In this document: one piece after another, positions 1,730 to 23,966 of the stretch | Layout of the letters: each line of letters opens with the position of its first letter | Position numbering within the stretch: position 1 is the stretch's first letter | Source of the DNA: Chthonomonadaceae bacterium | Lineage (GTDB): Bacteria > Armatimonadota > Chthonomonadetes > Chthonomonadales > Chthonomonadaceae | DNA: 24,069 nt | Direction of reading: 5' to 3' | NCBI GenBank assembly: GCA_025054835.1 | Contig: JANWZQ010000187.1 | Location: 1 to 24,069 of the forward strand | The notes under the pieces: model-generated | Databases searched by the model: none | What the model was told of the DNA's origin: nothing | The model's input: only the letters and a program-made list of their open reading frames with translations | Program-made: the position numbers and the translations under genes

Positions 1730-1732
1730 CGT

Positions 1733-3431: not shown

Positions 3432-3506
3432 CCTTACCCTGTAGGCGAAGAAATGGGGCAGGAGACACCGGGATCCCCTGCCCGCTGTAATCTGCTGGTA
3501 CGCCTT

Positions 3507-4975: not shown

Positions 4976-6121
4976 TCAGCCACGTCGTTCGATGATGCTG
5001 ACTGGATCCAGCCGTGCCAGACGGCATGCGATGGTCAGGAGAGCGAACAGCGTGATAGTGATTGGAAGGGGAACTGTAAACAGGTACGCGGAGAAGTCCA
5101 GTGGGTTGAGCAACAGCCCGCGGGGTGTGATCAGAGTGGCTTTGATCGCCGTGAGAACGCCGATCGTTATCACACATCCGGCTCCCCACCCGACCATGCA
5201 GTAAATCACCGTCTCCATGCCTGCCCGCGCCAGTAACAGGTTGCGCGTATACCCGATTGCTGACAACGTGGCAATTTCAGGCAACCGTTGCGTGAAATAG
5301 ATGTTCGCCAGCAGGCCGCACACGAACGAAATGGTGAACACAACAATGCTGATGATCACTCCGAGTACCAGGTACAGGTTCGCCAGCGAGAGTTGCGTCT
5401 CACGCACCACGTAGGAGAAAGGCCAGACGCGCGCCCGGCTACGATCCACACGTTGTTCCATCTCCCTGCCCAGCTCTTCCTGGAGCTCTGGCGTTCGAGC
5501 GAAGGCCAGATACCCCTGCCATGTGTAGGGAGAGTGCCGGTCCACAAATGATTTGGAAGTCAGTCCGAGCCAGCTCGCCCCGCGCAACAGGCCAACCAGC
5601 TTCACCGGCACCGGCGCATAGCGGTCCTCGGACTCTGGAAACAGCAAATTATCCCCGACTTTCACCCCGAGGTTTCGTGCGACCTCCTCTGACACAACCG
5701 CCTCAGCCGCTCCTTCGCGCAGCATGCGCCCTTCTGAGACGGTCACCTGACAGACCCGCATCAACCGCTCACGCGCCTCCGGGGAAAGCCCGAAAATCGG
5801 GAAGATCAGCCGTCCGAAGATCGTGCGCAGCATCACCTGATACGAGTGTGCGCCGGCCAGATATCCCATTTGAGGAAGGTGGCGCACCTCCCGCACGATG
5901 TCCTCGTCCACAGCAAGCGCATTCCGTGGAGTGAGCCCTGTAACGTATCGGTTGTAGCCATAGAAGGTATACACGGTGAGGTCAATCGAGTTCACCACTG
6001 TCACCACACTCGCGACCATCACCACCGACAGCGAGATCACCAGCACGAAAGGCAACGTCCGCGCAGGGTTGCGACGCACATACAGTAAAGGGCTCAAAAC
6101 CGAGCGTATCATCAAGCGCAA
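4976..6121 (-). CDS. FtsX/MacB-family ABC-transporter permease, with no cognate ATPase in the window
   Basis: The topology is one N-terminal TM (LPFVLVISLSVVMVASVVTVV), about 200 aa of periplasmic domain, then three C-terminal TMs (LVLGVIISIVVFTISFVCGLL, VIYCMVGWGAGCVITIGVL and LFTVPLPITITLFALLTIA). This is the FtsX-like permease architecture. The ORF starts with TTG at 6121, and an alternative ATG lies at 6112. No adjacent gene has Walker motifs. Confidence 0.8.
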   Translation of the reverse strand: MRLMIRSVLSPLLYVRRNPARTLPFVLVISLSVVMVASVVTVVNSIDLTVYTFYGYNRYVTGLTPRNALAVDEDIVREVRHLPQMGYLAGAHSYQVMLRTIFGRLIFPIFGLSPEARERLMRVCQVTVSEGRMLREGAAEAVVSEEVARNLGVKVGDNLLFPESEDRYAPVPVKLVGLLRGASWLGLTSKSFVDRHSPYTWQGYLAFARTPELQEELGREMEQRVDRSRARVWPFSYVVRETQLSLANLYLVLGVIISIVVFTISFVCGLLANIYFTQRLPEIATLSAIGYTRNLLLARAGMETVIYCMVGWGAGCVITIGVLTAIKATLITPRGLLLNPLDFSAYLFTVPLPITITLFALLTIACRLARLDPVSIIERRG

Positions 6122-6183
6122 ATCACCACAGGAAGACGCCCACTCCGTTCACGCATCACAGGCCAATCCACACAGGCCGGGGA

Positions 6184-6211
6184 AACTGTACTCTCTCGTC
6201 CGGCAACAGTT
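6184..6211. promoter_or_regulatory. Inverted repeat AACTGT-N16-ACAGTT in the divergent intergenic region between the permease and the membrane protein, a candidate operator
   Basis: AACTGT (6184-6189) and ACAGTT (6206-6211) are exact reverse complements with a 16-nt spacer. They sit in the 182-bp divergent promoter region (6122-6303). Confidence 0.2.
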
Positions 6212-6303
6212 CTGACGGTTTCCGCTTCCCCCGGGTTATCTGTAGTAGAAATCACAGCACAACATCCTCACAAAGCCCTGACAACATTCCAGGAGACGCC
6301 ATC

Positions 6304-7134
6304 ATGAAGTCACAGAAAACCCGCACAAAAGTGTCGGACATCATCCACGATACGATGCAACTGCTCATCTTCTTCGGCGGCCTGTCCCTCTGCATGCTGT
6401 TACAGGCGAAGCTCCTATCCCTGCTGTGCCCGCAACCAGATCAACCGGGGGAACCACTGGAGAAGTTCCTGTCCGGGCCGGTAGAACATGCGCTGAGCAG
6501 TATGCCCACCTACCTGAAGACATTCTGCAGGGTATGCATCTATGTTCCCTGCATTGCCCTCTACATATCGGGCCTGTTTCTGGCGTCCTTTCCGCACATC
6601 GCCATCCTGGGCCCCTGTCTGTTACTTCGATTGTATGACACCTACCGCACCCGGGGCAATTATCACCGGGAATTCAGACAGATAAAACAAGCGATCGAGT
6701 GGTTCCAGCAGAAAAAAGCAGATATCATCCTCGGCCTCATCCTGCTTGTATCCGTTGCCGCATCAGTCGCCGAGATCCACTTCTTTGCAGACCGCATCGC
6801 TCCGTTTCTCGCAAACACCGTGTTTGTGCCTCTGTCGCACTCTCTCGGACAGCTCTGGGAGCGCTTCATAGACCGGCCGGCGGTTCACTCCATCCTGACG
6901 TTCTTCCATTCTCTGTATTCCAGCTACCCGGCATTCTGGAACGTGATCCAGTGGATAGTGGTCTCGGTTCTTACGGTGCTCATCCTGCTGGCTGCGTTTG
7001 TTCTGTTCTTCCTGCTGATCTTGTGGAATGCGTTTATCCCGATGCGCATCTTCCATGCTGCAGACGAGTTCCTGAAATTTGTCCGCAAACATGCGGGCCG
7101 TTGCATGAAGGTCAGTCCGTGCGCTCAGTCATGA
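6304..7134 (+). CDS. Hypothetical polytopic membrane protein with about 6 predicted TM helices, no recognisable domain and atypical composition
   Basis: The ATG at 6304 is preceded by GGAG 8 nt upstream. Hydrophobic segments include LLIFFGGLSLCMLL, VCIYVPCIALYISGLFLASF, IILGLILLVSVAASV, and IVVSVLTVLILLAAFVLFFLLILW. GC is about 50% against roughly 60% in the flanks. The gene uses ATA, AAA and TTT codons that are rare in the neighbouring genes. Confidence 0.6.
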   Translation: MKSQKTRTKVSDIIHDTMQLLIFFGGLSLCMLLQAKLLSLLCPQPDQPGEPLEKFLSGPVEHALSSMPTYLKTFCRVCIYVPCIALYISGLFLASFPHIAILGPCLLLRLYDTYRTRGNYHREFRQIKQAIEWFQQKKADIILGLILLVSVAASVAEIHFFADRIAPFLANTVFVPLSHSLGQLWERFIDRPAVHSILTFFHSLYSSYPAFWNVIQWIVVSVLTVLILLAAFVLFFLLILWNAFIPMRIFHAADEFLKFVRKHAGRCMKVSPCAQS

Positions 7135-7168
7135 GCTACTGCTTTCAACCCGCACCACAGCTATCCAG

Positions 7169-7201
7169 CCAGTAGAGGCAGAGCTTTCTCGCCTCTGCTG
7201 G
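7169..7201. terminator. Hairpin between the convergent membrane-protein gene and trpE
   Basis: CCAGTAGAGGC (7169-7179) pairs with GCCTCTGCTGG (7191-7201) to give an 11-bp stem with one G-U pair and an 11-nt loop. A pyrimidine-rich tract follows on the plus strand. Confidence 0.4.
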
Positions 7202-7244
7202 CTTCATACCATTCCTCCGTGTCCAGTCCATGTGCCCCTTGCAA

Positions 7245-8759
7245 TCAGTCCAGTCCTTCCTCGGCCAGCTCGATGGCCCGTACCAGCGCACTGGCCTTGT
7301 TTACGCACTCCTGATACTCGCTGGCCGGTACCGAGTCCGCAACCACTCCGGCGCCCGCCTGCAGGTAGGCAGTCTGCCCGTCCACCCACATGGTACGGAT
7401 CGTGATCGCCATATCCATGCCTCCCGCGTAGCCGATATAGCCGACAGCCCCGGCATAGAACCCGCGGCGGGTCGGCTCCAGCTCATCGATAATCTGCATG
7501 GCCCGCACTTTGGGGGCACCGGAAACCGTTCCCGCAGGAAAGCAGGCACGCAACACATCGAATACGCTGTGCTCCGGTGCCAGTCGCCCCGTCACATTGG
7601 AAACAATGTGCATCACATGTGAGTACTTTTCTATAACCATCAACTCATCCACACGCACACTACCGTACTCACACACTCGCCCGATGTCGTTCCGCCCCAG
7701 ATCCACCAGCATAATGTGCTCGGCCCGCTCTTTCTCATCGGCCAGCAATTCCGCCTCCAGTCGCGCATCCTCCTGATCGGAAGCACCGCGCCTCCGGGTT
7801 CCGGCTATTGGTCGCTCGCGCACGATCCCTCGATCCACTGTAACCAGGATCTCCGGGGACGTACCGATGAGCTGCTGTCCCCCCAGCATGAGATAGTACA
7901 TATAGGGCGATGGATTGACGGAACGTAACGCCCGATACAGATCAAACGGAGGTGCCGTGAATGGAACCCGGAAGCGTTGCGACAATACGACCTGAAACGC
8001 GTCACCGGCCAGAATGTACTCGCGACAGCGCGAAACGGCTGCCTCGAAGTCCGTACGGGCGAAAAGCGGTTCTACCGTTACCGGGACTGGATCACTGCTT
8101 CGCAACCCCCCTGCCGATTGGGATGCAGCCGGGGCGGCACACAGCCGGGCGATGATTCGCTCAATGCGCTCTATCGCCCGATCATAGGCGCTCTCAGGAT
8201 CATCGGTCACATGGACGTTGCAGACGACCTTGAGTCCGTGACGTAGATGATCAAACACCAGCAGCGTATCGGTGAAAAGGAAGCACACGTCATCCACGTT
8301 CAGTTCATCCGGGTTGGCATCGGGTAACTCCTCGAAGAACCGCACGACATCATAACTCAGAAACCCGACAGCCCCTCCACTGAAGCGTGGCAACGTGGGC
8401 TCCGGGACATATCGGTACCGCGCCATGAGCTCTGCCAGCAACGTCAGCGGATCTGCGTCCGGAAGGATCTCCCTTGTCTGGATCCTGCCATTTTCCACCA
8501 GCGTGGCGGTCCGCCCCTTGCTCCGAAAGATCATCGCCGGGTCAGCCCCCAGAAACGAGTAGCGCCCGATCCGCTCTCCCTTCTCCACGCTCTCCAGCAG
8601 AAACGCGTACTGCGGCCCTCCCGTATCCCCAACCAGCCGTTCGAACGCTGAGACCGGCGTTAACCGATCCGCCAGAATTTCCCGATAGACCGGGATCAGG
8701 TTCCCCCGGGTAGACCTGCGGAGGAACTCCGCCCGGTCCGGCACAATGGTCCTCGCCAT
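7245..8759 (-). CDS. trpE: Anthranilate synthase component I (TrpE; chorismate-utilising enzyme family)
   Basis: Motifs include QYAFLLESVEKGERIGRYSFLGADP, GGAVGFLSYD, EHIMLVDLGRNDIGRVCEYGSVRVDELMVIEKYSHVMHIVSNVTG and GAGVVADSVPASEYQEC. The ATG at 8759 (MARTIVPD) has GAAGGGAG 5 nt upstream. The ORF-track TTG at 8813 would overlap the upstream gene. PabB or isochorismate-synthase paralogs cannot be fully excluded. Confidence 0.8.
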   Translation of the reverse strand: MARTIVPDRAEFLRRSTRGNLIPVYREILADRLTPVSAFERLVGDTGGPQYAFLLESVEKGERIGRYSFLGADPAMIFRSKGRTATLVENGRIQTREILPDADPLTLLAELMARYRYVPEPTLPRFSGGAVGFLSYDVVRFFEELPDANPDELNVDDVCFLFTDTLLVFDHLRHGLKVVCNVHVTDDPESAYDRAIERIERIIARLCAAPAASQSAGGLRSSDPVPVTVEPLFARTDFEAAVSRCREYILAGDAFQVVLSQRFRVPFTAPPFDLYRALRSVNPSPYMYYLMLGGQQLIGTSPEILVTVDRGIVRERPIAGTRRRGASDQEDARLEAELLADEKERAEHIMLVDLGRNDIGRVCEYGSVRVDELMVIEKYSHVMHIVSNVTGRLAPEHSVFDVLRACFPAGTVSGAPKVRAMQIIDELEPTRRGFYAGAVGYIGYAGGMDMAITIRTMWVDGQTAYLQAGAGVVADSVPASEYQECVNKASALVRAIELAEEGLD

Positions 8760-8772
8760 CAACACTCCCTTC

Positions 8773-9588
8773 TCAGGCTGCGCCAGTGCCTGCAGCGTTG
8801 CCCTCTTCGCCAATCAGAGGATTGTCAGGGTTGAGCACGGAACGCACATGCGCAGCAAACTCTGGAGGAGCAACTATAAAGGGCGCTCGCGTTACTCTCT
8901 GTTTCAGTAACTCTCCGGGGTCCAGCGGTTCTCCAGTCAGATAAGTCGCGATGCAACCTGCTTCCTGTGCTACACAGAGCCCTGCGGCCATGTCGTAGAA
9001 CCCCTCGTTCCAACCAATCAAGCAACACAGTGTCCCCCGGGCTGTGTACACGAGATCGGCGGCAATGCTGCCCAGACAACGTATCCGGCCCTGCAACCCC
9101 ACGGTGTTCAGCATCTTCACTGCCCGGGAGGTGAACCCCAGCGTGTCCTCCGGGTGACACGCTGTACGGTCTGTCGCGCGCAGAACCGTACCGTTGCAGT
9201 ATGCGCCCTGCCCCCTCACAGCCCAGAACAGCTCCCCGGTGCAGGGCAAATACACCGCCCCTGCGCAGAGTGTTCCCTGATCCACCAGCCCGATGGAAAC
9301 ACCCCAGAACGGCAGATTGAACACCATATTGGTTGTGCCGTCAATTGGATCTACGGCCCAGAGTGGTGCAGTTTTGCTCCCCTGCCAGCCGTACTCTTCT
9401 CCCCAGAACGCGTATCCCGGGTAGCGCGTTTCCAACCGCTCCTGCACGAAACGTTCCACCTCACGATCCACCGTGGTCACGTAGGAACTATCTGCTTTGA
9501 ACTCCGTCTGCATCGCACGTCGCAACTGCAATGCAAGCCCTCCCGCTTCTACAGCCACACCTTTGATGAACTCAATATCGATCTCCAC
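8773..9588 (-). CDS. Inositol monophosphatase-family protein (SuhB, or a HisN-like histidinol-phosphatase)
   Basis: The motif WAVDPIDGTTNMVFNLPFWGVSIGL is the IMPase metal-binding DPIDGT signature. A C-terminal WDxAAG-like motif (YDMAAGLCV) is present. The GTG start at 9588 has GGGAGG 6 nt upstream, and this RBS lies inside the 3' end of the upstream methyltransferase gene, indicating translational coupling. Confidence 0.85.
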   Translation of the reverse strand: MEIDIEFIKGVAVEAGGLALQLRRAMQTEFKADSSYVTTVDREVERFVQERLETRYPGYAFWGEEYGWQGSKTAPLWAVDPIDGTTNMVFNLPFWGVSIGLVDQGTLCAGAVYLPCTGELFWAVRGQGAYCNGTVLRATDRTACHPEDTLGFTSRAVKMLNTVGLQGRIRCLGSIAADLVYTARGTLCCLIGWNEGFYDMAAGLCVAQEAGCIATYLTGEPLDPGELLKQRVTRAPFIVAPPEFAAHVRSVLNPDNPLIGEEGNAAGTGAA

Positions 9589-9590
9589 AG

Positions 9591-10286
9591 TTATCCTCCC
9601 GTTCCTCGCCGCGCCACCCAGATCACTACTTCCACAGACTTACCATGCGTGCCCTGCCAGCACACCTCCAGTGTTTCTATCTGAAAGTGCCATCCGCTCT
9701 TTTCCAGATGTGCAGCAAACTCCAGAGCCTGCGGGCGTACGGGATCAGCGATGATCAACACACCGTCCTCCTTGAGATTACGGGCGAACACCGCTTCCAG
9801 GTAGAAGTGCATGGCACGATCGTAGAAGACGTCAGCCCCGATCAACACATCGTACCGCCGATCGTGCGCCCACTGACGCCAGTCCCCGGGGAAACGTTCG
9901 ATCCCGAACACCCCATTCTGCAACGCGTTGATCTCTGCCAGCTGCAACGCCCCCGGCAGGTGATCCGTTTGCCAGACCTGTGCGCCCAGAGAACGCGCGA
10001 TGATCCCGGACAGCCCGACACCACACCCGAGCTCCAGCACCTCCCGGCCGCGCACGTACTCCGGGCAGGTTGCCAGATAGCGTGCCAGCCCCACAGACGC
10101 TTCCCAGAGCAAGTACCCGTAGGGAAAATGCTCCATGGAGACGGCAGCATCCAGAAGAGCATCCTGATCCTCCACACAGGTTACCTGCCACACCCGATCC
10201 GCCACCACCACCGGGCGTGTGACCAGAGCGACCTGCGCGGACAGACGTGCCCATAATGCCTCAATCCATGCGGTTTGTGCCATCAT
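9591..10286 (-). CDS. Class I SAM-dependent methyltransferase, Methyltransf_16-like (protein-lysine N-methyltransferase fold)
   Basis: Motif I is VLELGCGVGLSGIIARSLGA. The post-I acidic residue is in VWQTDH. The sequence YDVLIGADVFYD is the family-typical motif. The likely start is ATG-ATG at 10286 (MMAQTAW), and the ORF-track start at 10373 adds 29 unsupported residues. Confidence 0.7.
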   Translation of the reverse strand: MMAQTAWIEALWARLSAQVALVTRPVVVADRVWQVTCVEDQDALLDAAVSMEHFPYGYLLWEASVGLARYLATCPEYVRGREVLELGCGVGLSGIIARSLGAQVWQTDHLPGALQLAEINALQNGVFGIERFPGDWRQWAHDRRYDVLIGADVFYDRAMHFYLEAVFARNLKEDGVLIIADPVRPQALEFAAHLEKSGWHFQIETLEVCWQGTHGKSVEVVIWVARRGTGG

Positions 10287-10378
10287 GGAAGGAACAGCTT
10301 TTCCTGTGAACGTATAGTTATACCGACGTGTCGCGCGTGCACATACATCGTGCATGCCGGGAGATGCAGGCAACGCCC

Positions 10379-11146
10379 ATGCGAGTTATCTGGAATGGAA
10401 CCGGTGCAGCATGGTCCTATCATCTGGGCAACGCATCGGCTATTGTGGAGACGGACGGGCTCCGAATATTGATCGACTGCGGGCACACTGTGCCGGCACG
10501 CCTGCAACAGATGCACCTGGCTTTCAACGACATCGACGCGGTTGTCATCACGCACCTGCACGGAGACCATATCTACGGTCTGGAAGAGTGGGGCTTCCGC
10601 AACTTTTTGATCTGGAACCGCCGTCCTCCTCTCCTCATTGCACACCCCCTTGTGGACCCGCTCTGGCATCACGTTCTCAGCGGACCCATGGGCCAGAATG
10701 ATCAGAAACGCCAGCTAGGTGACTATTTTCAGGTGATCCCGTTGCAAGAGAACGCGCCCCTGCCGTTTGGTCCGGTGACCATAGAGGTACACCCTGTTCT
10801 GCATGTTCCCGGTGTTCCCGCATACGGCATCAAACTGCAGGGCCCCGACGCCACTATCGCCTTCACAGGCGACACACAGGCGGAAGGGAACCCTTTCTTC
10901 TACAACGATGTGGATCTGACTTTCCACGATTGTAGCTTCCTGCCCCCCTACCCGAACACGGTCCACGCGCACTTTGAAGAACTCCAGCGCTACCCCCGGG
11001 AATGGCGCCAGAAAACGTACCTCACGCACTACGAAGACGCTGTCCAGCAATGGCGTACCGATCCGCAGTGGCGCGCCATGGTAGAACAGACTGGCATGCG
11101 CCTCGCCGAGCCTTTCACACCCATTGAAGTCATCCACACGCCTTGA
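10379..11146 (+). CDS. MBL-fold metallo-hydrolase
   Basis: The motif VVITHLHGDHIYGL matches HxHxDH. Downstream His and Asp ligands are present in HPVLHVPG, FTGDT and HYEDA. A beta-lactamase-like N-terminus, MRVIWNGTGAAWS, is present. The start is ambiguous among GTG at 10328, ATG at 10364 and ATG at 10379. Confidence 0.7.
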   Translation: MRVIWNGTGAAWSYHLGNASAIVETDGLRILIDCGHTVPARLQQMHLAFNDIDAVVITHLHGDHIYGLEEWGFRNFLIWNRRPPLLIAHPLVDPLWHHVLSGPMGQNDQKRQLGDYFQVIPLQENAPLPFGPVTIEVHPVLHVPGVPAYGIKLQGPDATIAFTGDTQAEGNPFFYNDVDLTFHDCSFLPPYPNTVHAHFEELQRYPREWRQKTYLTHYEDAVQQWRTDPQWRAMVEQTGMRLAEPFTPIEVIHTP

Positions 11147-11170
11147 CGCTGGCAGGCCCTATCGCGTACC

Positions 11171-12682
11171 ATGAGTGCCATGATCACCTCTGGCCTCAGT
11201 CTGGATCCGGCGATCGAGAGCGTACTGGAACGCATCCGGCAGGTCACTGCCGGTACTCCCTACGAGGGCACGCTCTACCTCGTAGGCGGTGTCCTGCGCG
11301 ATCATCTGCTGGGAGTCCCTCATGGAAACGACCTCGATCTGGTGCTGGAAGGAGATGCGCTCGCGCTTGCGCGCTTCCTGCACCAACAGGGTGTTACCCG
11401 GCATGCCCCGGTCACCTACCCGCGCTTCGGTACCGCCATGGTCCATATTCTTTCTCAGGATGGCACAGAGTGGACCGTGGAGCTGGTGTCGGCACGCGCT
11501 GAACGGTACTCCCCGGACTCGCGCAAGCCGGAAGTCCGTCAGGGCACCCTGCAGGACGATGTGTTGCGCAGGGATTTTACCATCAATACGCTCCTGCAGA
11601 ACCTGCACTCCGGTCAACTGCTTGACCTGACGTGCAAAGGGCTCGCTGACCTGCGCTCCGGGATTATTCGCACGCCTCTCGAGCCACGCGTCACTTTCTT
11701 CGATGACCCGTTGCGCATGCTCCGCGCCATCCGCTTTGCTGCCCGCTTCGAATTCACCATTGAGACCGCAACCTGGAGCGCGATCGTCGAGCACGCGGGC
11801 AGGCTCCAGTCACAGGCCATCTCTGCAGAACGCATCCGCGATGAGTTCCTCCGGATTGTACGTCTCCCGGGACCGAAGTTCCGTCGCGGTATGGAGTTGC
11901 TACTCACCTCGCGCCTCCTCGAGCAGTTCCTGCCGGAAATGCTGCCCATGGCAGGTTGCACGCAGGGTACCTGGCACATACATGACGTCTGGACCCACAC
12001 GCTGATCACGCTGGAGTGCCTGCCCGACGATGCCCCGGATGAGGTGCGCCTGGCCTTGCTCTGGCACGATATCGGCAAGCCTTCCACACGCAGCGAAGAT
12101 GCGACGGGCATTCACTTCTTCCATCATGCAAAGGCAGGCGCAGAGATCACCCGGGAACTGATGACCCGACTCCGCTTCCCGAACGACGTTATCAAGGACG
12201 TGACTGCTCTGATCGCCCATCATATGCGTCCGGGCGAATACCGCACCGGATGGTCCGACGCGGCAGTCAAACGCCTCATCCGTGATTGTGGTGAATACCT
12301 CGAACGGCTGCTCCTGATCACGCAATGTGACCGCTCCGGTATCAATATTCCCCCGGAAGAGGCGGCCAATCTCGACGAGCTCCGCGCCCGGATCGAGCGC
12401 ATCAATGCGCTCTCGGATGTCGCGCGCATCGATAGCCCGCTGAACGGCCACGAAATCATGCAACAGCTCGGTGTCGGTCGCGGGCCCCATCTGCGCGCAG
12501 CCAAAGACTTCTTGATCAATGAGATCCTGGAAGGCCGCCTTTCCGAGGGAGACAAACAGACAGCGCTCCAGCTGCTGACCCGCTGGTGGCAGACGCAACA
12601 GGTCACCTCACCCGATCAGATCTCATCCCTTCATCGGCCAGACAACCTGCGCGAAAACGTCGTAACAGACTCGCCCCGGTAG
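11171..12682 (+). CDS. cca: CCA-adding enzyme (tRNA nucleotidyltransferase) with a class-II Pol-beta head and an HD domain
   Basis: Motifs include GGVLRDHLLG, DLDLVLEG (the catalytic DxD), RRDFTINTL, and the HD motif in LLWHDIGKP followed by later His and Asp residues. The C-terminal 30 aa are low-complexity and overlap the convergent rnz gene by 60 nt. Confidence 0.8.
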   Translation: MSAMITSGLSLDPAIESVLERIRQVTAGTPYEGTLYLVGGVLRDHLLGVPHGNDLDLVLEGDALALARFLHQQGVTRHAPVTYPRFGTAMVHILSQDGTEWTVELVSARAERYSPDSRKPEVRQGTLQDDVLRRDFTINTLLQNLHSGQLLDLTCKGLADLRSGIIRTPLEPRVTFFDDPLRMLRAIRFAARFEFTIETATWSAIVEHAGRLQSQAISAERIRDEFLRIVRLPGPKFRRGMELLLTSRLLEQFLPEMLPMAGCTQGTWHIHDVWTHTLITLECLPDDAPDEVRLALLWHDIGKPSTRSEDATGIHFFHHAKAGAEITRELMTRLRFPNDVIKDVTALIAHHMRPGEYRTGWSDAAVKRLIRDCGEYLERLLLITQCDRSGINIPPEEAANLDELRARIERINALSDVARIDSPLNGHEIMQQLGVGRGPHLRAAKDFLINEILEGRLSEGDKQTALQLLTRWWQTQQVTSPDQISSLHRPDNLRENVVTDSPR

Positions 12683-13537
12683 CACAACGCTCACACGGGC
12701 ACGGATCTCCCGGCGGGCACAGGCAGCACGGACTGTGCGCAGGATCTGCTCGTCTGTGTAACGCCGGGAGATGTGGTACAGGGCCAGCCGCTCCACGCCC
12801 GCGGCCTGTGCGACCTCCAGCACCTCGCTCAGGCAGGAATGCTCGTGTCCGCGCGCCCGGGCTTCGGCGCGCTGCTCCGCATCCTCATCCAGAAACGTGC
12901 ACTCGTGCAACAGGAAGCGCGTTCCCGCCAGTGCCTCTGGATGCAGAGGCAGCGTATCCCCGGACACGGTGAGCAGAACGTCCTCCTCCACGCAGGTGAT
13001 CGCCGCGCGCCCGCGTTCGGTGCGCAACCGATCCAGTTCCTCCTGTGGCAGGCCGCGCAACTCCGGCCGCAAACGGGTCACCACCCGCCCGATCTGATAT
13101 CCCAGGCATCGTGGTCTCCCGTCTGCCGTGCCGGGCACATGTCGGGTCTCGCAGGCACGCAGAAAGCGATTGTCCCCGAGGTCCAACCGATCGTCATGGC
13201 GCATGCCGTGCCATCGTGTCTGCCCGGTCGTACTCTGGTCAAATTGCGCGAGGAAGCGCCCGAATGCAGCTACCGCGTTACACCCTTCAGGGTGCACTAC
13301 CTCCACCGGGAAGCCCTGCAGAGATGCAACACCTCCTCGCAGATTCAACAACTGTGGCAACCCCGCAATGTGATCACGATGCGAATGCGTCAGGGCAACG
13401 TACTGCACTCGGTGCACCTTGCCATCCAGCAGTGCAGCTACCCCGTCGCCAGCGTCAAACAGCACGCGGTGGGTCTCATCCAGAACCCATGTGGACACCA
13501 GAGGCGTGGAGAAAGCGATGAGCCGGGGCGGTTCCAT
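12623..13537 (-). CDS. rnz: Ribonuclease Z (tRNA 3' endonuclease, short form)
   Basis: The motif VALTHSHRDHIAGLPQLL matches HxHxDH. The sequence HECTFLDEDAE with downstream GHEH...LYHISRRY matches the RNase Z or ElaC HST-like motif. The length of 304 aa fits the short form. An ATG lies at 13537. Confidence 0.8.
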   Translation of the reverse strand: MEPPRLIAFSTPLVSTWVLDETHRVLFDAGDGVAALLDGKVHRVQYVALTHSHRDHIAGLPQLLNLRGGVASLQGFPVEVVHPEGCNAVAAFGRFLAQFDQSTTGQTRWHGMRHDDRLDLGDNRFLRACETRHVPGTADGRPRCLGYQIGRVVTRLRPELRGLPQEELDRLRTERGRAAITCVEEDVLLTVSGDTLPLHPEALAGTRFLLHECTFLDEDAEQRAEARARGHEHSCLSEVLEVAQAAGVERLALYHISRRYTDEQILRTVRAACARREIRARVSVVLPGRVCYDVFAQVVWPMKG

Positions 13538-13630
13538 GGCATTGCAATAGACCGGGACGGCACCATCCGCGCCGCAGACAACATTGTACCCGACATGGCC
13601 TTCTCAAGGAGGATGGGCTCTCCGGTAGCA

Positions 13631-13674
13631 GTAAAGAAGGGCCGGGGTGCTGCATCCCGTTGCACCTCCGGCCC
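13631..13674 (-). terminator. Intrinsic terminator of the acidic orphan gene
   Basis: GGGCCGGGGTGC (13639-13650) pairs with GCACC-T-CCGGCCC (13662-13674) to give a 12-bp stem with a 1-nt bulge and an 11-nt loop. It starts 14 nt after the stop. On the minus strand it is followed by TTCTTTAC. Confidence 0.6.
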
Positions 13675-13687
13675 TCAACAGCCACAC

Positions 13688-14953
13688 TCAGAATCTACCC
13701 GCAAAGATGACTCTCTCCTTACCTTTACCCTCAACTCTCCCTCTGAAGAGTTCGACGATACCCTGGTACATCTCTTCCATCGCACCCCGAATAGGTTGCA
13801 GGTGCTTTTGCACGAGAGCATCCCTGTGCCTGGCGACAGCCTCACTCAGCAATCGTTCTATTTTCGGCCCCACCACCGGAAGGCCATACAGGATTTCCAC
13901 ACGGCACGTGCTCTCGAAGCGACGTAGCTCAGAGGTCATCGCCTGCAGGACATCCAGATTCTCCTTCAGCAGTGCGTGCACCTCCACACGCATTCTGGCA
14001 ACAGCCTGTGCCAGACGCTCTGCGTTGCGGTACATATTCTTTTCGATATCTTTCTGCTTTTCATCTGTCATCTCATAGTCGGGTTCACTGACAACAAAGC
14101 ACTCCTCTGGAAGATCCTTTCCAAGGACACGGGCCTCGCAGTAATCAAGTTTGAGCTCCCCTTCCATGCCATCGAGAAAGGCACCTGCCTCGTTCACCAA
14201 ACGGATACTATCAGGCAGATCCTGGAGCAAATAAGGCAGAAAACCTTCCCAGTCCACACCAGCCATGCTCCTGATATCGCCAAAGAAGTCAGGCATGTGA
14301 GCATGCAGGCTGAATTTCGCATAAGCATCTACGGAGATGCGGGGGACGCTCGCCCACCAGTCCCGGTCGTATCCGCTACACCCTCCTTCGATAGAAGATG
14401 TGACATCAACGTCTACCGTAACAGGGCATCCATCATAGTCGAAGAGATAGGTTTTCTCCTGCTTTTTAAAGCCCTTCCAGTAGTTCCTAAATTCCCATTC
14501 TAAATGCTCGAAATATTCCCTGACTTCCTCAGCTTCTTCCTCACAACACCTGTAGGCGTATTCACTGAAGTCGCTGTAGTATTCACTCCCTATTTCTGCT
14601 GCCTCACAGGGGTATCTGCTCCAGGCCTTGAGAAACGACATATAGTCATGATAACCTTTACCTCCCAATCTGTAGTAATACCTTTCCTCGTCATCGTCCT
14701 CTTCATACTCGTCCACTTCGTCTGTATCGCTTTCCTCATCTTCCTCGTCGTCTTCGCAATCCTCATCCACGTACTCGTCTTCCTCGTCCGTGAGCATATC
14801 CTCTGCTTCTTCCAGCTCATCGAACGCGGCTTCCTCTACGTCCCGGGTCTCAACGACCACAGTGGCAGTCAGGTCCTCCTGCTCGTTTGCCATCCCGGCG
14901 GCCGGTGCCGTGTTCTGGACTTCCTGCATGTTGCTGCGAGCTTCGGTGATCAT
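13688..14953 (-). CDS. Hypothetical hyper-acidic protein with an N-terminal Asp/Glu-rich disordered region and a Tyr/Trp/Cys-rich core; orphan, with foreign codon usage
   Basis: The ATG at 14953 has AGGAGAG 6 nt upstream. Residues 20-90 are mostly D and E (EEDEYVDEDCEDDEEDEESDTDEVDEYEEDDDEE). The core contains YYYRLGGKGYHDYMSFLKAWSRYPCE, DYDGCPVTVDVDV and a C-terminal helical region. The gene uses AGA/AGG Arg, ATA Ile and TTA Leu codons, and its GC is roughly 50%. Both are atypical for this window. I recognise no domain. Confidence 0.65.
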   Translation of the reverse strand: MITEARSNMQEVQNTAPAAGMANEQEDLTATVVVETRDVEEAAFDELEEAEDMLTDEEDEYVDEDCEDDEEDEESDTDEVDEYEEDDDEERYYYRLGGKGYHDYMSFLKAWSRYPCEAAEIGSEYYSDFSEYAYRCCEEEAEEVREYFEHLEWEFRNYWKGFKKQEKTYLFDYDGCPVTVDVDVTSSIEGGCSGYDRDWWASVPRISVDAYAKFSLHAHMPDFFGDIRSMAGVDWEGFLPYLLQDLPDSIRLVNEAGAFLDGMEGELKLDYCEARVLGKDLPEECFVVSEPDYEMTDEKQKDIEKNMYRNAERLAQAVARMRVEVHALLKENLDVLQAMTSELRRFESTCRVEILYGLPVVGPKIERLLSEAVARHRDALVQKHLQPIRGAMEEMYQGIVELFRGRVEGKGKERVIFAGRF

Positions 14954-15319
14954 GGGTGACTCTCCTGTTCTCCTGCGGTGTGGTGGTAGCTCTGCAGGGG
15001 CCTCTGCCCCGTCCCTTTCATTTCACACACTCGCAACTTCAACTCAAAACCGGAAACCGGGGACGCTTTTCTTGCTGTTTTTTGCAGGCACACCGGAACA
15101 GGAGCAATGAAAAGTGGCACTATGGCACGGGCCGGGTAGCGTGATCTGGTCCTGCAACACCCGGGCGGATCTATGTCATGCGGGCAGCAGTGCAACGCTC
15201 CGGTGAAGAAACAACGTAGAGTTAGATGAGGCAACGCGTTCCGGCGCATCAGAAATGCCGGAATACACAACCAGGCTGACCAGAGCGTGAGCCTGCGGAC
15301 ATCGTACAAACTCTCCCTG

Positions 15320-15348
15320 CCCGGCGTGCTGAGCGCCGGGATTTTTTC
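15320..15348. terminator. Rho-independent terminator hairpin, canonical on the plus strand, sitting 27 nt past the DUF3500-like stop
   Basis: CCCGGCG (15320-15326) pairs with CGCCGGG (15334-15340) to give a 7-bp GC stem with a 7-nt loop. ATTTTTTCT (15341-15349) follows on the plus strand. On the minus strand the A-tract lies upstream, which is the arrangement of a bidirectional terminator. Confidence 0.5.
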
Positions 15349-15358
15349 TGGATCGTAC

Positions 15359-16408
15359 TCAGTGCCGGTGGGGCACGGGGAACCGATGGTAGTGCTCGGC
15401 CAGAAAATCGCGCCCAAAGTCCCCCTTGAAGTCGCGCCAGACAGTGTGGATGTGATTGGCGTCATTCTGCGTGTTATCGTACTCTATCAGGAAGGTCTTC
15501 CCCTGGACGCGATAGTAGTGACCCTGTCCCTTTTCCAATCCCCCCATCCACGCAAACCGGATCGTGTCCAGTCCGGCCTTTCGGATCGCCTCGAGGCGTT
15601 GCCGCGCCAGCTCCGGGCGTTGCACACTGGCATGCTCCCGGATCAGTGCGAGAAGGATCCCCTGCTGCTCCCGATTGAGTGTCCGATAGGCAATCCCTCG
15701 ATCCTCCAGGATTGCCGCCTCACGCTTGTTGGACGTGATCAGATCCGGAGGAGCAGTATCGCTCAAGATGGCCTGCCGACGTTGCTCGGCACTCAGTGAG
15801 CGGACCAGCGCGCGCCCCAGATCTTCCTCGGCAGCCAGTGCGCGCGTGCCTCGCATCGGGCCCTCACGTACTTCAGCAGGATTGGAACCCAGAAATTGCG
15901 GGCTGGATGCGATGACCTTTCCCCCAACACTTGTCCAGTTGAGGGAGATGTGATGTCCCTCGTAGCGCCATCCCCATGCCCCCTGTTGCGAGGGCTCGCC
16001 AAACACTGTGATGTAGTATAGCTCCGGGTCACGTACCGGTCCTCGCCCCTGCTCGATCTCGCGTAACACGATTTCCAGAGCGCGAATGGTCTCCACCTTC
16101 TGATATCCTCTCGCACTGAGGCTATCGCGCAACAGCTGGAGTGCAGCCTCACGTTGCGCAGGACTCAGGTCTTTGAAGCTGATCCCTTGGCGCACCATCG
16201 GCACGTAGTTGAAGTTCAACCGCTCTTCCGAGTTGAATGGCAAAACGGCCCTGGCCCGTTGCTCTGCCGTGAGTGTCGCAAGGAACCGGGCAACGGCCCG
16301 GTCCATCGCGTGTTCCTCTCGTCGTTGCGCCAGCGAGAACATCACCATAGCGAGCGCTCCTGCACCCGCCAGGATCAGAGGCCCCCCATGGACAGAACGC
16401 AACATCAT
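15359..16408 (-). CDS. DUF3500-like protein with an N-terminal signal or TM anchor
   Basis: The ATG-ATG at 16408 has AGGAG 5 nt upstream, and this RBS overlaps the kbl stop. The N-terminal hydrophobic segment is GPLILAGAGALAMVMFSL. The conserved C-terminal block YYRVQGKTFLIEYDNTQNDANHIHTVWRD is what I recall as the DUF3500 signature. The assignment rests on memory only. Confidence 0.55.
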   Translation of the reverse strand: MMLRSVHGGPLILAGAGALAMVMFSLAQRREEHAMDRAVARFLATLTAEQRARAVLPFNSEERLNFNYVPMVRQGISFKDLSPAQREAALQLLRDSLSARGYQKVETIRALEIVLREIEQGRGPVRDPELYYITVFGEPSQQGAWGWRYEGHHISLNWTSVGGKVIASSPQFLGSNPAEVREGPMRGTRALAAEEDLGRALVRSLSAEQRRQAILSDTAPPDLITSNKREAAILEDRGIAYRTLNREQQGILLALIREHASVQRPELARQRLEAIRKAGLDTIRFAWMGGLEKGQGHYYRVQGKTFLIEYDNTQNDANHIHTVWRDFKGDFGRDFLAEHYHRFPVPHRH

Positions 16409-16421
16409 AGCATCTCCTGCA

Positions 16422-17603
16422 CTAGATAATCCCCAGTTGCTTCCCGACCTTTTCGAACGCAGCCAGAGCGTCGTCCAGGTCCTGTCGGGAGTGCATGGCG
16501 CTCGGCATGGTGCGTATCCGGGCCTTGCCCCGCGCTACCGTGGGGTAAACGATGGCAAGCGCCATCACCCCTTCTTCGAACAGGTCCCGTTGCATCTGCT
16601 GCGCCTTCTCCTCGTCCCACGTCATTACAGGAGTGATCGGCGTTTCAGAAACCCCGGTGTCGAACCCGAGACGTTTCAAGCCTTCCTTCCAGTAGCGCGC
16701 GTTGTCCCAGAGCCGTTCTGTGAGCGAGGGATCATTCTCCATCAGATCGATCGCGGCCAGAACGGCCGCCACCACTGCCGGCGGATGCCCGGTGCTGAAC
16801 AGGAACGGGCGAGCGCGTTGCGTCAACCAGTCAATCAGCACCGCGCTGCCAGCAATGTAGCCTCCCATCACGCCCACAGCCTTGGAGAGTGTGCCCAGTT
16901 GAATATCGATCCGCTCGTGCACACCAAAGTGAAACGCCGTGCCCCGGCCGCCCCCCAGCACGCCAGACCCATGGGCATCGTCTACCATCACAGCCGCGTC
17001 GTACTGCTCTGCAAGGCGCAGGATGTCTGGCAGAGGCGCGATGTCCCCATCCATGGAGAAGACCCCGTCGGTAATGATCAGGCGCTTCCGGGCGTCCCGT
17101 GTGGATTTCAGAGCGTCCTCCAGCGCGTTCAGGTCGCAATGCTTGTAGATCCTGCGTGCCGCTTTCGACAGACGCACTCCATCGATGATACTGGCGTGGT
17201 TCAGCTCATCTGTGATGATCGCATCCCCTTCCTCGGTGATGGTTGGAATGACCCCCGAGTTGGCTGTAAAACCACTCTGAAACACCAGCGTGGCAGGCAC
17301 ATGCTTGAATTCTGCCAGACGTCGCTCCAGATCCATATGCAGGCGCATAGTCCCGATAATCGGGCGTACCGCACCGGCCCCGGCTCCCCATTCCATAACG
17401 GCCCGGATTGCCGCTTCTTTCACCTTCGGATGGTTGGCCAGACCCAGGTAGTTGTTGCTGGACAGATTGATCACCCCGGGCCTGCCGTTCACCGTGATCC
17501 GGGCCTCCGAGGGCGTTTCCATAACGACAAGCGGCTTATACAGGTGTTCTTCTTTCAACGCATGGATCTGCGCTTGCAACCAGCGATGCAGTGTGGTGTT
17601 CAT
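16422..17603 (-). CDS. kbl: 2-amino-3-ketobutyrate CoA ligase (glycine C-acetyltransferase; PLP-dependent alpha-oxoamine synthase)
   Basis: The matches to E. coli Kbl blocks are very close: [29 protein letters not shown], and the PLP-lysine region [14 protein letters not shown] lies 7 nt upstream of the ATG at 17603. BioF and ALAS paralogs are less likely given these Kbl-specific blocks. Confidence 0.8.
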
Positions 17604-18669: not shown

Positions 18670-19464
18670 TCAGGTGTTGGGCGCGCCGCCCGGAATTCCA
18701 GACAGATCGCAGGGCAGTGTGTAGGTCTTCACATTGCCCGTTGAGATGCCCGGGATGTCGCTGCGTCGGGTGTGGTACTTGGCATGGCCGTCCACAAAGT
18801 TGACCACGAAGCCGTCCGAGTGTCTGGGATCCGCCGGGAAGTTGTCCCACCCGAAAACTCCGGAGGGACGCGGGCAGATCGGATCCACCTGCGGATCGGT
18901 CGGGCGAACGTAACGTGAGTCGAAGAACATGGTGGTATTGACGGGCTCCTGGATGGCCGCCAGAGGCACCACCGGGTCATCGGCAAACAGACCGGGGGGC
19001 AATGCCGGATCCTGGAACAGCGCAAAGTTCATGGCGTAAGAGGAGTAGCGGAAGTTGCCACTGCCACGCAGGCCCAGATTGGGCAGGATCGCGTTGGCCG
19101 GCGGCGGATTGGTCCCCGGCCCTGCGAAGTCGATCCCCGGCCGGTTCGACGGGCAGACCAGGATCTCAATGTTGCGCATATAGGGCATCACCGCATCGTA
19201 GACCGTGAACACCCGCACCCCGGTACCCGGCATCAAGATCGGTGAGTCCATGCTGTACGCGCTCTGCGGAAACGTCTCGTCGTAATCCTGCACATACATC
19301 AGCACAGCGGTCGCAAACTGGCGCATGTTGGAAGTGCAGGAGGCCTGCCGTGCCTTCTCCCGCGCCTGCGCGAACACCGGAAACAGGATCGCCGCCAGAA
19401 TGGCGATGATCGCGATTACTACAAGCAGCTCAATCAGCGTAAAACCCTGTCTTTTGCGATACAT
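18670..19464 (-). CDS. Prepilin-type N-terminal cleavage/methylation domain protein with a C-terminal H-X9-DG domain (DUF1559-like)
   Basis: The N-terminus [43 protein letters not shown] is the class-III signal-peptide GFTLIE motif, followed by DUF1559-like spacing. The C-terminus carries an H-X9-DG-type motif in FVDGHAKYH...RSD. GGAG lies 5 nt upstream of the ATG at 19464. Confidence 0.8.
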
Positions 19465-20960: not shown

Positions 20961-22904
20961 TCAGGTTCCCTGCGTTCCCTCCGAGGAAGCAGGCGCAGCG
21001 CCATCGTTGGCGTCCGGTGTCGCAGGTCCGCTGGGGGCTACCGCGCTCGCACTACCATTCAGGTCCAGACCGGTCAGGCGAGAGAGCAACTCCCGGGCCT
21101 GAGCCGGCAGGTTGGCCTGAAAACCATCCAGCATGAACCCGGCGCTCTGACCGGCGAAGAACGCCCGTGCCATCTTCTGCATTGCTTCCGGATCTCCCCA
21201 GATCGTGACATTGGCTTTCGCCATGGCAGCACCGAAAGCCTCCGCAGCCGCTATCCGTGCGGCTTTCTCGGCCTCGATCTTCGCCAGTTCAACCTGAAGC
21301 TCACGCGCGATGGATTCAAAGCGCGCCTGCCCCTCCAGCTCCCGGATCTTCACAGCAACCCGATCGTCTTCTACCTTCACTTGCTCCCGGGCTACCAGCA
21401 CCGGCACCATCTGCAGGGCCTGCTCGCCCTCGGCATGTAGCGCTCTGGCTTTCCTGTCCGCCTCCGCCAGCACCAGTTGCGCCTGCGCCTGTTTCTCGGC
21501 TGCCTGCTGCTCCGCCTCCGCTTCCTTGACACGGGCATACGCGGCCACATCCGCCGCCATCTGCTGCTCAATGCGCTGTTGCTGCACCACGGCCTCTTTG
21601 GCGATGATGGCTTTCTGCCGCTCGCGCTCCGCGGCAGCTACCTCTCTGGTCGTCACGACTTCCTGACCGGCAGCCTCCTGCTGCTTCTGAGCAGCCAGCT
21701 GCAACGCAGCGGCTTCGGCGCGCGCCTTCTCCGCCCGGGCGATCTCGATCTCCTGTTGCCGGCGGGCCAGCTCCATCGCCTTCTCAGCCTCCACCTCCGC
21801 TACCCGCCTGGCCCGTTCACGCTCTTTGTCCGCAACCTCTATCGCCTTCTGCTGCGCCACGCGAGCCAGCTCGATCTCCTGTTGCGCCTGCACCTCCGCG
21901 ATCCCGGCAATGCGTTGCTGTTCTGCGGCTACTGTCCTGGCACGTTGAGCTGCCTCGGCAGCGGCAATGTTCTTCTTCGCCTCCGCCTCATACTGAGCCA
22001 GCGCGGCATACTGATCCGCCTCACTCTGCGCCACCTTCTTGCGCGCCTCTGCCTCTGCCATGGCCCGGGCCTGCGCCGCATCCTGCTCCGCGATGTACTT
22101 CGCAGCCAGAACCTGCTGCTCTTTCACCTTCTGATCCGCTTCGGCCTCGATCCGGGTTCGCTCTACCCGTTGCCGCTGCACCTGCTCCGCAATGGTCCGG
22201 GCACCCTGCGCATCGAAAACGTTCTCCTCCGGCCGCATGGAAGAGAGAGGCGCCTGATCCAGACTGGAAATCGTCACCGACTCCAGGCTCAATCCGTTCG
22301 CCTTGAGATCCTCCGCAACGATCTTCTGAACCGCATCGGCAAAGTCTGCGCGATTTGCGTTCAGGTTCTGCAATGTCTGCTGCGCAGCCACGGTGCGTAG
22401 CGCCGAAACCAGTTTGTCGTTGATCAGGGCCTGTACCGGACCAATATCCGAGGTGATTTCTGGCAGAGAGCTCGCCGCCTGAATAATGGATGAAGGATCT
22501 TTCTGTACCCGTACATAGAACACGGCCTTGACATCCGCACGCAGGAAGTCCGCCGTGATCAATGCCTCCGGCCCGGTCCGATCCACCTCCAGCTTGAAGG
22601 TGTTGGTCGGGATCATCTTGATCTGGTGGAGCACCGGGATCACGATGGCACCGCCATCAATCACACACTTCATCCCCTTGACCCCGGTGCGCACAAACGC
22701 GACATCCGCCTTCGTGCGCACGTAAAGCCGGGTGATCACCGCCAGAACACACCCGAAAAACGCCAGGATGGCCCCGAACCCGACCAGAACCCCCCGGCTG
22801 ATCGGCGGCAGGTCCGGCACCAGAAACGGCGCGACCACCAGCGCCAGTCCCAGTCCGGCCACCAGAACCAGTACCAGTGTTAACCCACCACTTGTTCTCT
22901 GCAT
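20961..22904 (-). CDS. Flotillin-like SPFH/band-7 protein (YqiK family) with N-terminal membrane anchor or anchors and a long Ala/Glu-rich coiled coil
   Basis: The ATG at 22904 has AGGAGG 8 nt upstream. The N-terminus has two hydrophobic segments, followed by RTKADVAFVRTGVKGMKCVIDGGAIVIPVLHQI (the SPFH start; compare E. coli YqiK AEQAFVRTG). About 250 aa of EA-rich repeats follow (AEAEARKKVAQSEADQYA...), typical of flotillins. Confidence 0.85.
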   Translation of the reverse strand: MQRTSGGLTLVLVLVAGLGLALVVAPFLVPDLPPISRGVLVGFGAILAFFGCVLAVITRLYVRTKADVAFVRTGVKGMKCVIDGGAIVIPVLHQIKMIPTNTFKLEVDRTGPEALITADFLRADVKAVFYVRVQKDPSSIIQAASSLPEITSDIGPVQALINDKLVSALRTVAAQQTLQNLNANRADFADAVQKIVAEDLKANGLSLESVTISSLDQAPLSSMRPEENVFDAQGARTIAEQVQRQRVERTRIEAEADQKVKEQQVLAAKYIAEQDAAQARAMAEAEARKKVAQSEADQYAALAQYEAEAKKNIAAAEAAQRARTVAAEQQRIAGIAEVQAQQEIELARVAQQKAIEVADKERERARRVAEVEAEKAMELARRQQEIEIARAEKARAEAAALQLAAQKQQEAAGQEVVTTREVAAAERERQKAIIAKEAVVQQQRIEQQMAADVAAYARVKEAEAEQQAAEKQAQAQLVLAEADRKARALHAEGEQALQMVPVLVAREQVKVEDDRVAVKIRELEGQARFESIARELQVELAKIEAEKAARIAAAEAFGAAMAKANVTIWGDPEAMQKMARAFFAGQSAGFMLDGFQANLPAQARELLSRLTGLDLNGSASAVAPSGPATPDANDGAAPASSEGTQGT

Positions 22905-23360
22905 CGTAATCTCCTCCTGACTCCACCCTCCGACAAGGCACTACCTGAAGCGAGATAGGGCCCGCTTCCTTCCACCATGCAGTCACCTGCGCACCGGTGT
23001 TGTCCCACGCTGCGATAGAGGTCCAATCGGTCGCCTCACCCACTGCATCCCGGCTCACCAGAAACTGATATTGCTCCGGGTACGGCCCTGCCAGCAATCT
23101 ACTGTCCTTCCAGCAGTCCTGCATCCTCCCTGGAATCGATGCGCTTCTGCACGACGTTCTGGAACCGTGAAGAACGTCGCCACTGCACCTGACTGACCGT
23201 CCACGGGGTATCCGGCACGAATACCTCCACGTTGACACTGATCGCCCCATCACGCGGATCACACCCGAACTGCAATCGCTTGTTCTGATTCTTGAGCTCC
23301 AGCAACTTCCGGGCAAAGGTGGGCAGACCACTCTGCAACCGCGGAGATCACGCGCACATT

Positions 23361-23966
23361 CTATCCCTCGTCTGTCAGTCCGACTCGCCGCACCAGGTAC
23401 ACATCCCGCTCCGGGTCGTACTCCTCCAGACGCACCTGCGAACCTGCCGGTATCGACTCCTCCCCCGGGAATGTACGACACTCCAGATCCAGCAGATGCC
23501 CGAAACGATCACGCACACGCACGGTCCCCCCCTGCCCGTGTACTGAGTAAAGCGCCAGTCCGGTTTCCCCCCATAACTCGGCACGTGTCGCATGATAGCT
23601 CTCTTCCGACGGCACCACCCGCGCCACACCCTGCCCGATCACGCGCGCTCCGAAAACGGACATCACTGTTGCGCACAGCAGAGAAATCCACACACGGTGC
23701 ACCCCGACAAACAGGTTACAGATCAACCCGGAGGCCCCCCAGACCAGCAGCAGGCCTGTCAGCAGAATGGACAGCGGAACGCGCCCGACCCCCAGAAAGT
23801 CCAGCATCCCGCTCCACAAACCGGGCCCTGCCTCGACTTCTCCGTCACCCTCCAGCTCCCCTGCATCCGTGTCTCCCACACCACTGACAGCCAGTGCCAG
23901 CGCATATAACGCGCCTGTGACCAGCGGAATGAAGAAGATGAGATTCTGCCACAGTATCAGCTCCAT
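23361..23966 (-). CDS. NfeD/YqiJ-like membrane protein with N-terminal TMs and a C-terminal OB-fold-like domain; presumed partner of the flotillin
   Basis: The ATG at 23966 has GAGG 7 nt upstream. TM segments are LIFFIPLVTGALYALALAV, PLSILLTGLLLVWGASGLICNLFVGV, and ISLLCATVMSVFGA. A soluble, beta-rich tail of about 85 aa follows. The gene lies upstream of, and on the same strand as, an SPFH gene, as in the E. coli yqiJ-yqiK pair. Confidence 0.6.
   Translation of the reverse strand: MELILWQNLIFFIPLVTGALYALALAVSGVGDTDAGELEGDGEVEAGPGLWSGMLDFLGVGRVPLSILLTGLLLVWGASGLICNLFVGVHRVWISLLCATVMSVFGARVIGQGVARVVPSEESYHATRAELWGETGLALYSVHGQGGTVRVRDRFGHLLDLECRTFPGEESIPAGSQVRLEEYDPERDVYLVRRVGLTDEG

Follow-up and report, generated by a model that had tools for sequence, protein, structure and literature searches.

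An orphan gene for a strongly acidic protein, shared by two sister species of Chthonomonadaceae at a collinear chromosomal locus

Is the single gene that separates an RNase Z-like gene from a Kbl/DUF3500 gene pair in Chthonomonadaceae bacterium a recent mobile arrival, or does it belong to this chromosome? The gene encodes a 421-residue acidic protein and was analysed within positions 1–24,069 of contig JANWZQ010000187.1 (assembly GCA_025054835.1; forward strand), referred to here as the window. An earlier note, made from the sequence alone, had described the span 13631–14970, which encloses this open reading frame (ORF) as its sole gene, as a compositionally foreign single-gene island and had favored a mobile counter-defence or regulatory role. 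Its placement of the gene was accurate: an RNase Z-like metallo-β-lactamase (MBL) gene (12623–13537) and the Kbl/DUF3500 pair (15359–17603) flank the ORF. The eye-catching picture of a foreign, hyper-acidic island gene is resolved by a second genome, in which the gene proves old at its locus and vertically inherited, with an acidic tract that is neutral and expandable. We read it as a taxonomically restricted protein-coding gene of the Chthonomonadaceae (Armatimonadota) lineage, an explanation that, taken with all of its inferred parts, seems to us about evenly poised between right and wrong. The gene lies at

13688–14953, minus strand: coding sequence of the 421-residue acidic orphan protein, stop codon included, taken from the ORF list and retained as an ORF in the ortholog.

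When residues 91–421 were run exhaustively with phmmer against 1.84 billion cluster representatives, two proteins passed E ≤ 0.001, the query itself and P0002, a protein of 381 residues (E = 2.5e-94) that is 47–52% identical to it and is its sole homolog among about 15 billion proteins. A profile of both orthologs run against 5.8 billion sequences gave the same two proteins again, and each of them forms a singleton cluster; neither the core nor the two-sequence profile brought up further homologs in word-indexed searches. A Pfam hmmscan of the protein at E ≤ 10 gave only TAL_effector (0.21) and PI3K p101 (2.8), NCBIfam gave nothing below E = 0.2 and a profile search of the PDB at E ≤ 10 gave five unrelated chains, in agreement with the earlier statement that no known domain is recognizable. 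Homologs in prophages, plasmids or defence islands, which the earlier note had proposed to look for, were not found: PHROGs and PADLOC gave no match to the protein, and no relatives were present in IMG/VR contigs or, by tblastn, in GenBank phages and PLSDB plasmids. Two scans of JGI metagenome contigs also found no relatives. On these searches the protein is a true orphan and its sequence family is undescribed. The expectation that this would be the undescribed feature of the window has therefore held, in that it is a real, strongly acidic orphan with atypical codons and P0002 as its sole homolog. Viewed as a type, it is an orphan gene that carries a low-complexity acidic tail, and there is so far no hint of a new mechanism.

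P0002 comes from L001, a Logan contig of 2 kb whose overlap with the 16.8-kb contig L016 is 100% identical, and the two contigs are collinear with window positions 1700–14950. The shared order comprises a response regulator, Smr, a dockerin protein, FtsX, TrpE, IMPase, a methyltransferase, an MBL protein, a CCA enzyme, the rnz-like gene and the acidic-protein gene. Ten neighbor pairs compared by the Nei–Gojobori method show identities of 83–95%, with nonsynonymous divergence (dN) of 0.02–0.09, synonymous divergence (dS) of 0.58–0.85 and dN/dS of 0.03–0.14. The corresponding values for the acidic-protein pair are 52%, 0.36, 1.02 and 0.35, and its protein divergence is 4–16 times that of the neighbors. 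Silent divergence at conserved residues is 0.41 at fourfold sites, compared with 0.38 in the pooled neighbors, and 0.33 compared with 0.30 at twofold sites (Fisher p = 0.63–0.64). Since this silent divergence equals that of the flanks, the gene stood at the locus in the common ancestor and has been transmitted vertically from then on; the two-species alignment thus shows vertical inheritance since the split of the sister species, with no recent insertion. Replacement of the allele by recombination, considered on account of the dS of 1.02 (higher than the 0.58–0.85 of the neighbors), was rejected, as the silent sites at conserved residues match those of the neighbors and the high dN artefactually inflates dS.

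The surroundings of the gene agree with this history. No integrase or transposase domain occurs in the 20 window ORFs and no direct repeats flank the gene (one 17-nt inverted pair has one arm inside the rnz-like gene), and no credible tRNA target is present either. Neither presence/absence polymorphism nor divergence discordant with the flanks was seen for the gene. A recent horizontal insertion, as implied by the term single-gene island, is contradicted by the occupied locus in the sister species, its flank-like silent divergence and the lack of mobility genes. In 11 Chthonomonadaceae loci the stretch upstream of the rnz-like gene holds no positional analogue; Chthonomonadaceae with an rnz-like protein 59–70% identical to that of the window have other genes upstream, no acidic ORF, and have lost the upstream synteny. 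ARAGORN calls a tRNA-Gly(GCC) of 99 nt at 19310–19408 (plus strand), 4 kb from the gene and inside the minus-strand DUF1559/N-methyl gene; the call is probably a false positive, Rfam finding no tRNA in the window.

Comparison of the orthologs divides the protein into four regions with different constraint:

14894–14953, minus strand: residues 1–20, N-terminal segment MIxExRxxxQxVQNxAP, with coding-type constraint.
14669–14893, minus strand: residues 21–95, polyanionic low-complexity tract, predicted coil, length-variable and effectively unconstrained.
14069–14668, minus strand: residues 96–295, putative acidic, Tyr-rich α/β core with conserved Cys136, Cys192 and Cys272, assigned from dN/dS and low-confidence models.
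13691–14068, minus strand: residues 296–421, the most conserved part, slightly basic (+5), with three predicted long amphipathic helices.

All five indels in the coding sequence are multiples of three (3, 57, 33, 3 and 24 nt). In the N-terminal segment, ten of residues 1–17 are invariant, and differences over residues 1–20 are 0.15, 0.30 and 0.40 at the first, second and third codon positions. Residues 21–57 differ by 0.33, 0.36 and 0.28, which is the level of silent sites elsewhere. Residues 21–95 as a whole contain the indels of 57, 33 and 3 nt and have windowed dN/dS values of 0.6–0.86, and the GAN-rich DNA that codes for the acidic tract contains short direct repeats. The counterpart of the tract in P0002 (residues 21–68) has 48 residues and a net charge of about −14, being some 30 residues shorter. 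By this comparison the tract is a neutral, slippage-prone tail of which only the acidic composition is retained. Positive selection on the N-terminus, suggested by few silent changes at conserved residues (3 of 30), was rejected since all three codon positions show the same difference of about 0.3, the level expected under neutrality, and no 30-codon window has a dN/dS above 1. Residues 96–421 show the pattern typical of coding sequence, with differences lowest at position 2, higher at position 1 and highest at position 3. The dN/dS is about 0.27–0.29 for the core (0.1–0.5 across it) and 0.30 for the C-terminus, which at 62% identity is the best conserved part, and the core motifs PVTVDV, DWW, HMPDF, GDIRS and VDWE are invariant in both orthologs. 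The alignment thus shows purifying selection on a 200-residue core and a 125-residue helical C-terminus.

These patterns also bear on whether there is a gene here at all. Long spurious ORFs occur often in DNA of 59% GC, several of them overlapping this region on one strand or the other, as would be expected if the acidic ORF were a chance product of GC-rich DNA. That reading has a next-to-negligible chance of being right in view of a conserved frame in which every indel is in frame, a dN/dS well under 1, codon-position differences that fit coding sequence and a conserved ribosome-binding site (RBS), start codon and terminator; set against L001 and L016, it is effectively refuted. With the ORF kept under purifying selection together with its RBS, start codon and terminator, the gene is, by every mark read from the alignment, a real protein-coding gene.

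The signals around the coding sequence are

14960–14965, minus strand: Shine–Dalgarno-like GGAGAG, 6 nt upstream of the ATG, read from the sequence and identical in the ortholog.
13633–13674, minus strand: intrinsic-terminator-like hairpin GGGCCGG...CCGGCCC followed by UUCUUU, 3' of the stop codon.
14954–15358, minus strand: upstream intergenic region of 405 nt, its distal part conserved between species.

The strong RBS and the terminator of its own that had been attributed to the gene are thus both in place. The 71-nt fold of the terminator hairpin has an energy of −34 kcal/mol (z = −2.9 versus shuffles) and its stem core recurs unchanged in the ortholog; a terminator consensus scan passed over this hairpin because its loop exceeds 8 nt. 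From these signals the gene appears to be monocistronic, and independent transcription is plausible. In the upstream region, the distal 130 nt (15185–15316, minus strand; L001 1–134) are 83% conserved, compared with 56% in the next 125 nt, and contain a TTCCGG/CCGGAA hairpin of which the stem is retained while the loop varies, without compensatory changes in the two sequences. This segment may function as a promoter or leader, or may encode a small RNA; Rfam gave no match at gathering or E-value thresholds in the window or in 13500–15400. A further GC-rich hairpin lies at 15320–15340, 20 nt past the DUF3500 stop codon. It receives a terminator score on the plus strand only, where it is trailed by a T-run; read on the minus strand, it has an A-run in front and lacks a U-tract.

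The GC content of the ORF is 0.52, compared with 0.594 for the window, close to the value of about 50% for which the earlier note had set the gene apart from its flanks. GC at the three codon positions is 0.62, 0.35 (0.346 unrounded) and 0.59, compared with about 0.65, 0.44 and 0.70 in the neighbors, whose third-position GC (GC3) ranges from 0.64 to 0.78. Amino-acid composition (Asp, Glu, Tyr and Lys codons) explains about half of this dip, and synonymous choice about half. Codon usage was scored as the log-likelihood under the codon frequencies of the 18 other genes relative to the expectation for the protein's own amino-acid composition, and on this scale the gene is the clearest outlier of the window (z = −6.4; next-worst gene −3.2). 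AGA and AGG account for 14 of its 28 Arg codons, compared with at most 6 of 36 elsewhere, and are scattered along the whole gene rather than limited to the repeat tract; GCG, CCG and TCG are depleted, and the CpG odds are 0.82 compared with 1.0. The claim of outlying codon usage is therefore sound for AGA/AGG, but ATA (2 of 12) and TTA (1 of 31), which had been named with them, are not unusual. In composition and codon usage, then, the gene is unlike its host, as a recently acquired island would be. The ortholog shows the same anomaly (GC 0.50, GC3 0.56 compared with 0.74 in its neighbor, AGA/AGG 11 of 25), which, being common to both, predates the species split. The gene may have been taken up before the split from a donor of lower GC content; alternatively, it may have been held at low codon adaptation.

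Low codon adaptation is also what would be expected of a decaying or marginal lineage-specific gene, newborn or a domesticated remnant, that owed its acidity and odd codons to GAN-repeat slippage and low expression. The very narrow distribution, a dN/dS 3–10 times that of the neighbors, the neutrality of the N-terminal quarter and the direct repeats in the acidic-coding DNA are all in keeping with such an origin. We nevertheless regard it as unlikely: the ORF is intact in both species despite a silent divergence of about 0.4 per site, core dN/dS stays at 0.1–0.3 across 300-plus codons, both the RBS and the terminator are conserved, and AGA/AGG are spread gene-wide and not just in the repeats. 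The gene resembles bacterial ORFans in being confined to two sister species, in evolving faster than its neighbors, in its low GC content and odd codons and in lacking a domain. It differs from them in its length (421 residues, where orphans are usually short), in having more than 300 residues under purifying selection, in its extreme acidity and in its stable vertical residence at a housekeeping locus, not in a prophage or variable island.

The protein has a calculated isoelectric point of 4.30 and a net charge of −58.8, or −0.14 per residue, compared with −0.04 to +0.03 in the 18 other window proteins, which confirms the strong acidity ascribed to it. Asp and Glu make up 41 of the 75 residues of the tract at 21–95 (55%, net charge −38) and 28 of 35 within 56–90, 44 of 205 in residues 96–300 (net −25) and 17 of 122 in residues 300–421 (net +5). 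An N-terminal tract dense in acidic residues is thus present as described, but 'almost pure' Asp and Glu over about 70 residues was an overstatement. Likewise, of the Tyr/Trp/Cys-rich core only the Tyr enrichment is real (5.7%, compared with 0.7–4.2% in the neighbors); Trp is average at 1.4%, and Cys at 2.1% is inside the range of the neighbors. Self-BLAST of the core revealed no internal repeat. The protein contains no hydrophobic segment (highest 19-residue hydropathy 0.8, well under the membrane-spanning level) and no evident signal peptide, from which a soluble cytoplasmic product is inferred.

Strong negative charge and a low isoelectric point are features that the protein shares with the DNA mimics Ocr (T7 gp0.3) and ArdA, and electrostatic competition for DNA-binding surfaces could be common to them, although this is resemblance only. 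A mobile, horizontally acquired protein of the Ocr, ArdA or anti-CRISPR type, blocking restriction or other DNA-binding defences, had been proposed. The net charge of −59 with a folded core that is also acidic (−25), the atypical codon usage and the fast protein evolution would suit such a role, and published mimics are highly divergent and hard to spot by sequence (PMC3902945). However, a mimic needs a DNA-like charge arrangement on an appropriate structure (PMC3902945), that is, a fixed array, whereas the densest acidic part of this protein is predicted to be disordered, varies in length and is neutral. The protein is also far larger, at 421 residues, than Ocr (116 residues; PMC3439906). It matches no Pfam family or PDB chain, nor PHROGs or PADLOC, and so is neither an ArdA nor an Ocr; and, as noted above, none of its 30-codon windows exceeds a dN/dS of 1. 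Carriage by a phage, plasmid or conjugative element is not observed: the gene lies in collinear chromosomal DNA of two species, in a housekeeping context without integrase, transposase or credible tRNA, has co-diverged with its neighbors and has no relatives in the viral, phage and plasmid collections searched. PADLOC and PHROGs gave only generic domain matches for the neighboring genes. A likeness of YYSDFSEYAYRCCEE to an ArdA motif was considered and dropped, as no profile or PDB search supports it. The genomic context, the distribution of the gene and the neutral evolution of the tract all disfavor the mobile counter-defence role, which we consider highly improbable. The earlier observation was thus largely correct, and its interpretation as a foreign island or DNA mimic is mostly unsupported.

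Asp/Glu-rich tracts are generic cation binders. The protein might accordingly have a metal- or redox-dependent Cys/His core, with the tract serving as a low-affinity buffer for cations (Ca2+, Mg2+, Fe) or as a solubility tail, and Cys66, Cys136, Cys192, Cys272, His219, His326 and His376 are kept in both orthologs although these share just 52% identity. Chance alone leaves many residues unchanged in a pair of sequences, no recognizable metal-binding motif or family was found, and no transporter or cofactor genes are linked to the gene; we consider this reading distinctly unlikely.

For a lineage-specific gene under purifying selection, the mechanism that we prefer is a hypothetical one. The product would be soluble and cytoplasmic; it would assemble or dock by means of its core and of the amphipathic helices conserved at the C-terminus, specificity would lie in the folded parts and not in the acidic tract, and the disordered polyanionic tail would act electrostatically. 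By competition or shielding, the tail may keep nucleic acid from a basic binding surface of a partner, as the acidic tail of the RNA polymerase δ subunit does; alternatively, its target may be the protein's own slightly basic C-terminal domain. As a whole this scheme is doubtful. AlphaFold2 models built on the two-sequence alignment have a mean pLDDT of 36.3 over the full length and 38.0 for residues 91–421, and these low-confidence models show mixed strands and helices in 96–270 and helices at 297–349, 354–375 and 379–403; the hydrophobic periodicity of the C-terminal helices is 3.5–3.67 residues, as for amphipathic helices.

The closest architectural parallel we compared is the δ subunit of Bacillus subtilis RNA polymerase (RpoE), which joins a folded domain to an acidic, disordered stretch whose net charge is −47 (PMC7749165). 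Both proteins pair a folded part with a polyanionic tract of about 75–80 residues (−38 in the orphan, where disorder is predicted), and in both only the composition of the tract would need to be kept. The tract is C-terminal in δ and N-terminal in the orphan, which gives no δ-family match in Pfam or NCBIfam at E ≤ 10, is 2.4 times longer with an extra helical domain and comes from a phylum other than the Firmicutes. On the most far-reaching view, the gene would be the founder of an undescribed group of chromosomal polyanionic regulators in Armatimonadota, in which a fast-evolving folded module targets a basic nucleic-acid-binding protein and the tail occludes its surface; the partner might be a nuclease, a polymerase, or an enzyme of defence or tRNA processing, of which the RNase Z-like protein next to it is an example. 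We consider this very unlikely. If a partner were found, it could be a chromosomal instance of polyanionic-tail regulation outside the Firmicutes.

Several points weigh against our explanation of the gene and its product. The analysis of selection has little power with two sequences. The statement that the gene is absent from relatives covers those with an rnz-like protein at most 70% identical, the 74–77% class being outside it. A promoter scan upstream of the gene found no sigma-70-like site, and read-through from Kbl/DUF3500 into the gene may occur. The domain boundaries and helices are tentative, both AlphaFold2 models being unusable. No partner gene is linked to the gene, its neighbors being unrelated housekeeping genes, and the unconstrained acidic tract may be a tolerated slippage product without a role. 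The remaining interest is modest and lies in a two-member family of a 421-residue protein with more than 300 residues under selection and a lasting atypical codon usage; as it stands, this is another uncharacterized lineage-specific gene.

The identical protein has been deposited twice, as MDW8206250.1 with a Chloroherpetonaceae label and as MCS6777900.1 with a Chthonomonadaceae label. The 11 best relatives of the RNase Z-like gene in species-representative genomes are all from Chthonomonadaceae/Chthonomonadales (59–69% identity), the arrangement of rnz-like gene, CCA-adding enzyme and second MBL gene is retained in several of those genomes, and a window DUF1559 protein with an N-terminal methylation motif fits Armatimonadota. 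These three lines together place the window in Armatimonadota and make the Chloroherpetonaceae bin label wrong; the copy of the contig with that label in a public metagenome-assembled genome is probably mis-binned.

Three other ORFs of the window deserve mention. A 274-residue ORF at 22657–23481 (minus strand) has no Pfam or NCBIfam match and a second-position GC (0.665) above its GC3 (0.535), the reverse of the pattern of real genes here, and is probably not a translated frame. Between TrpE and FtsX, a segment of about 1 kb (approximately 6240–7238) carries an ORF of 276 residues (6304–7134, plus strand; isoelectric point 9.2) without a Pfam, NCBIfam or PHROGs match. The segment is absent from the collinear L016, in which TrpE and FtsX are 90 nt apart, so that this ORF, unlike the acidic-protein gene, is by that comparison a true presence/absence single-gene indel. 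Finally, the MBL-fold protein encoded at 10328–11146 (plus strand) matches the Pfam family Anti-Pycsar Apyc1 with 100.6 bits (cut-off 50). On the chromosome its gene is clustered with those for the CCA-adding enzyme and the RNase Z-like protein, a conserved arrangement also found in other Chthonomonadaceae, and the protein is likely to be a host-encoded relative of the phage enzyme.

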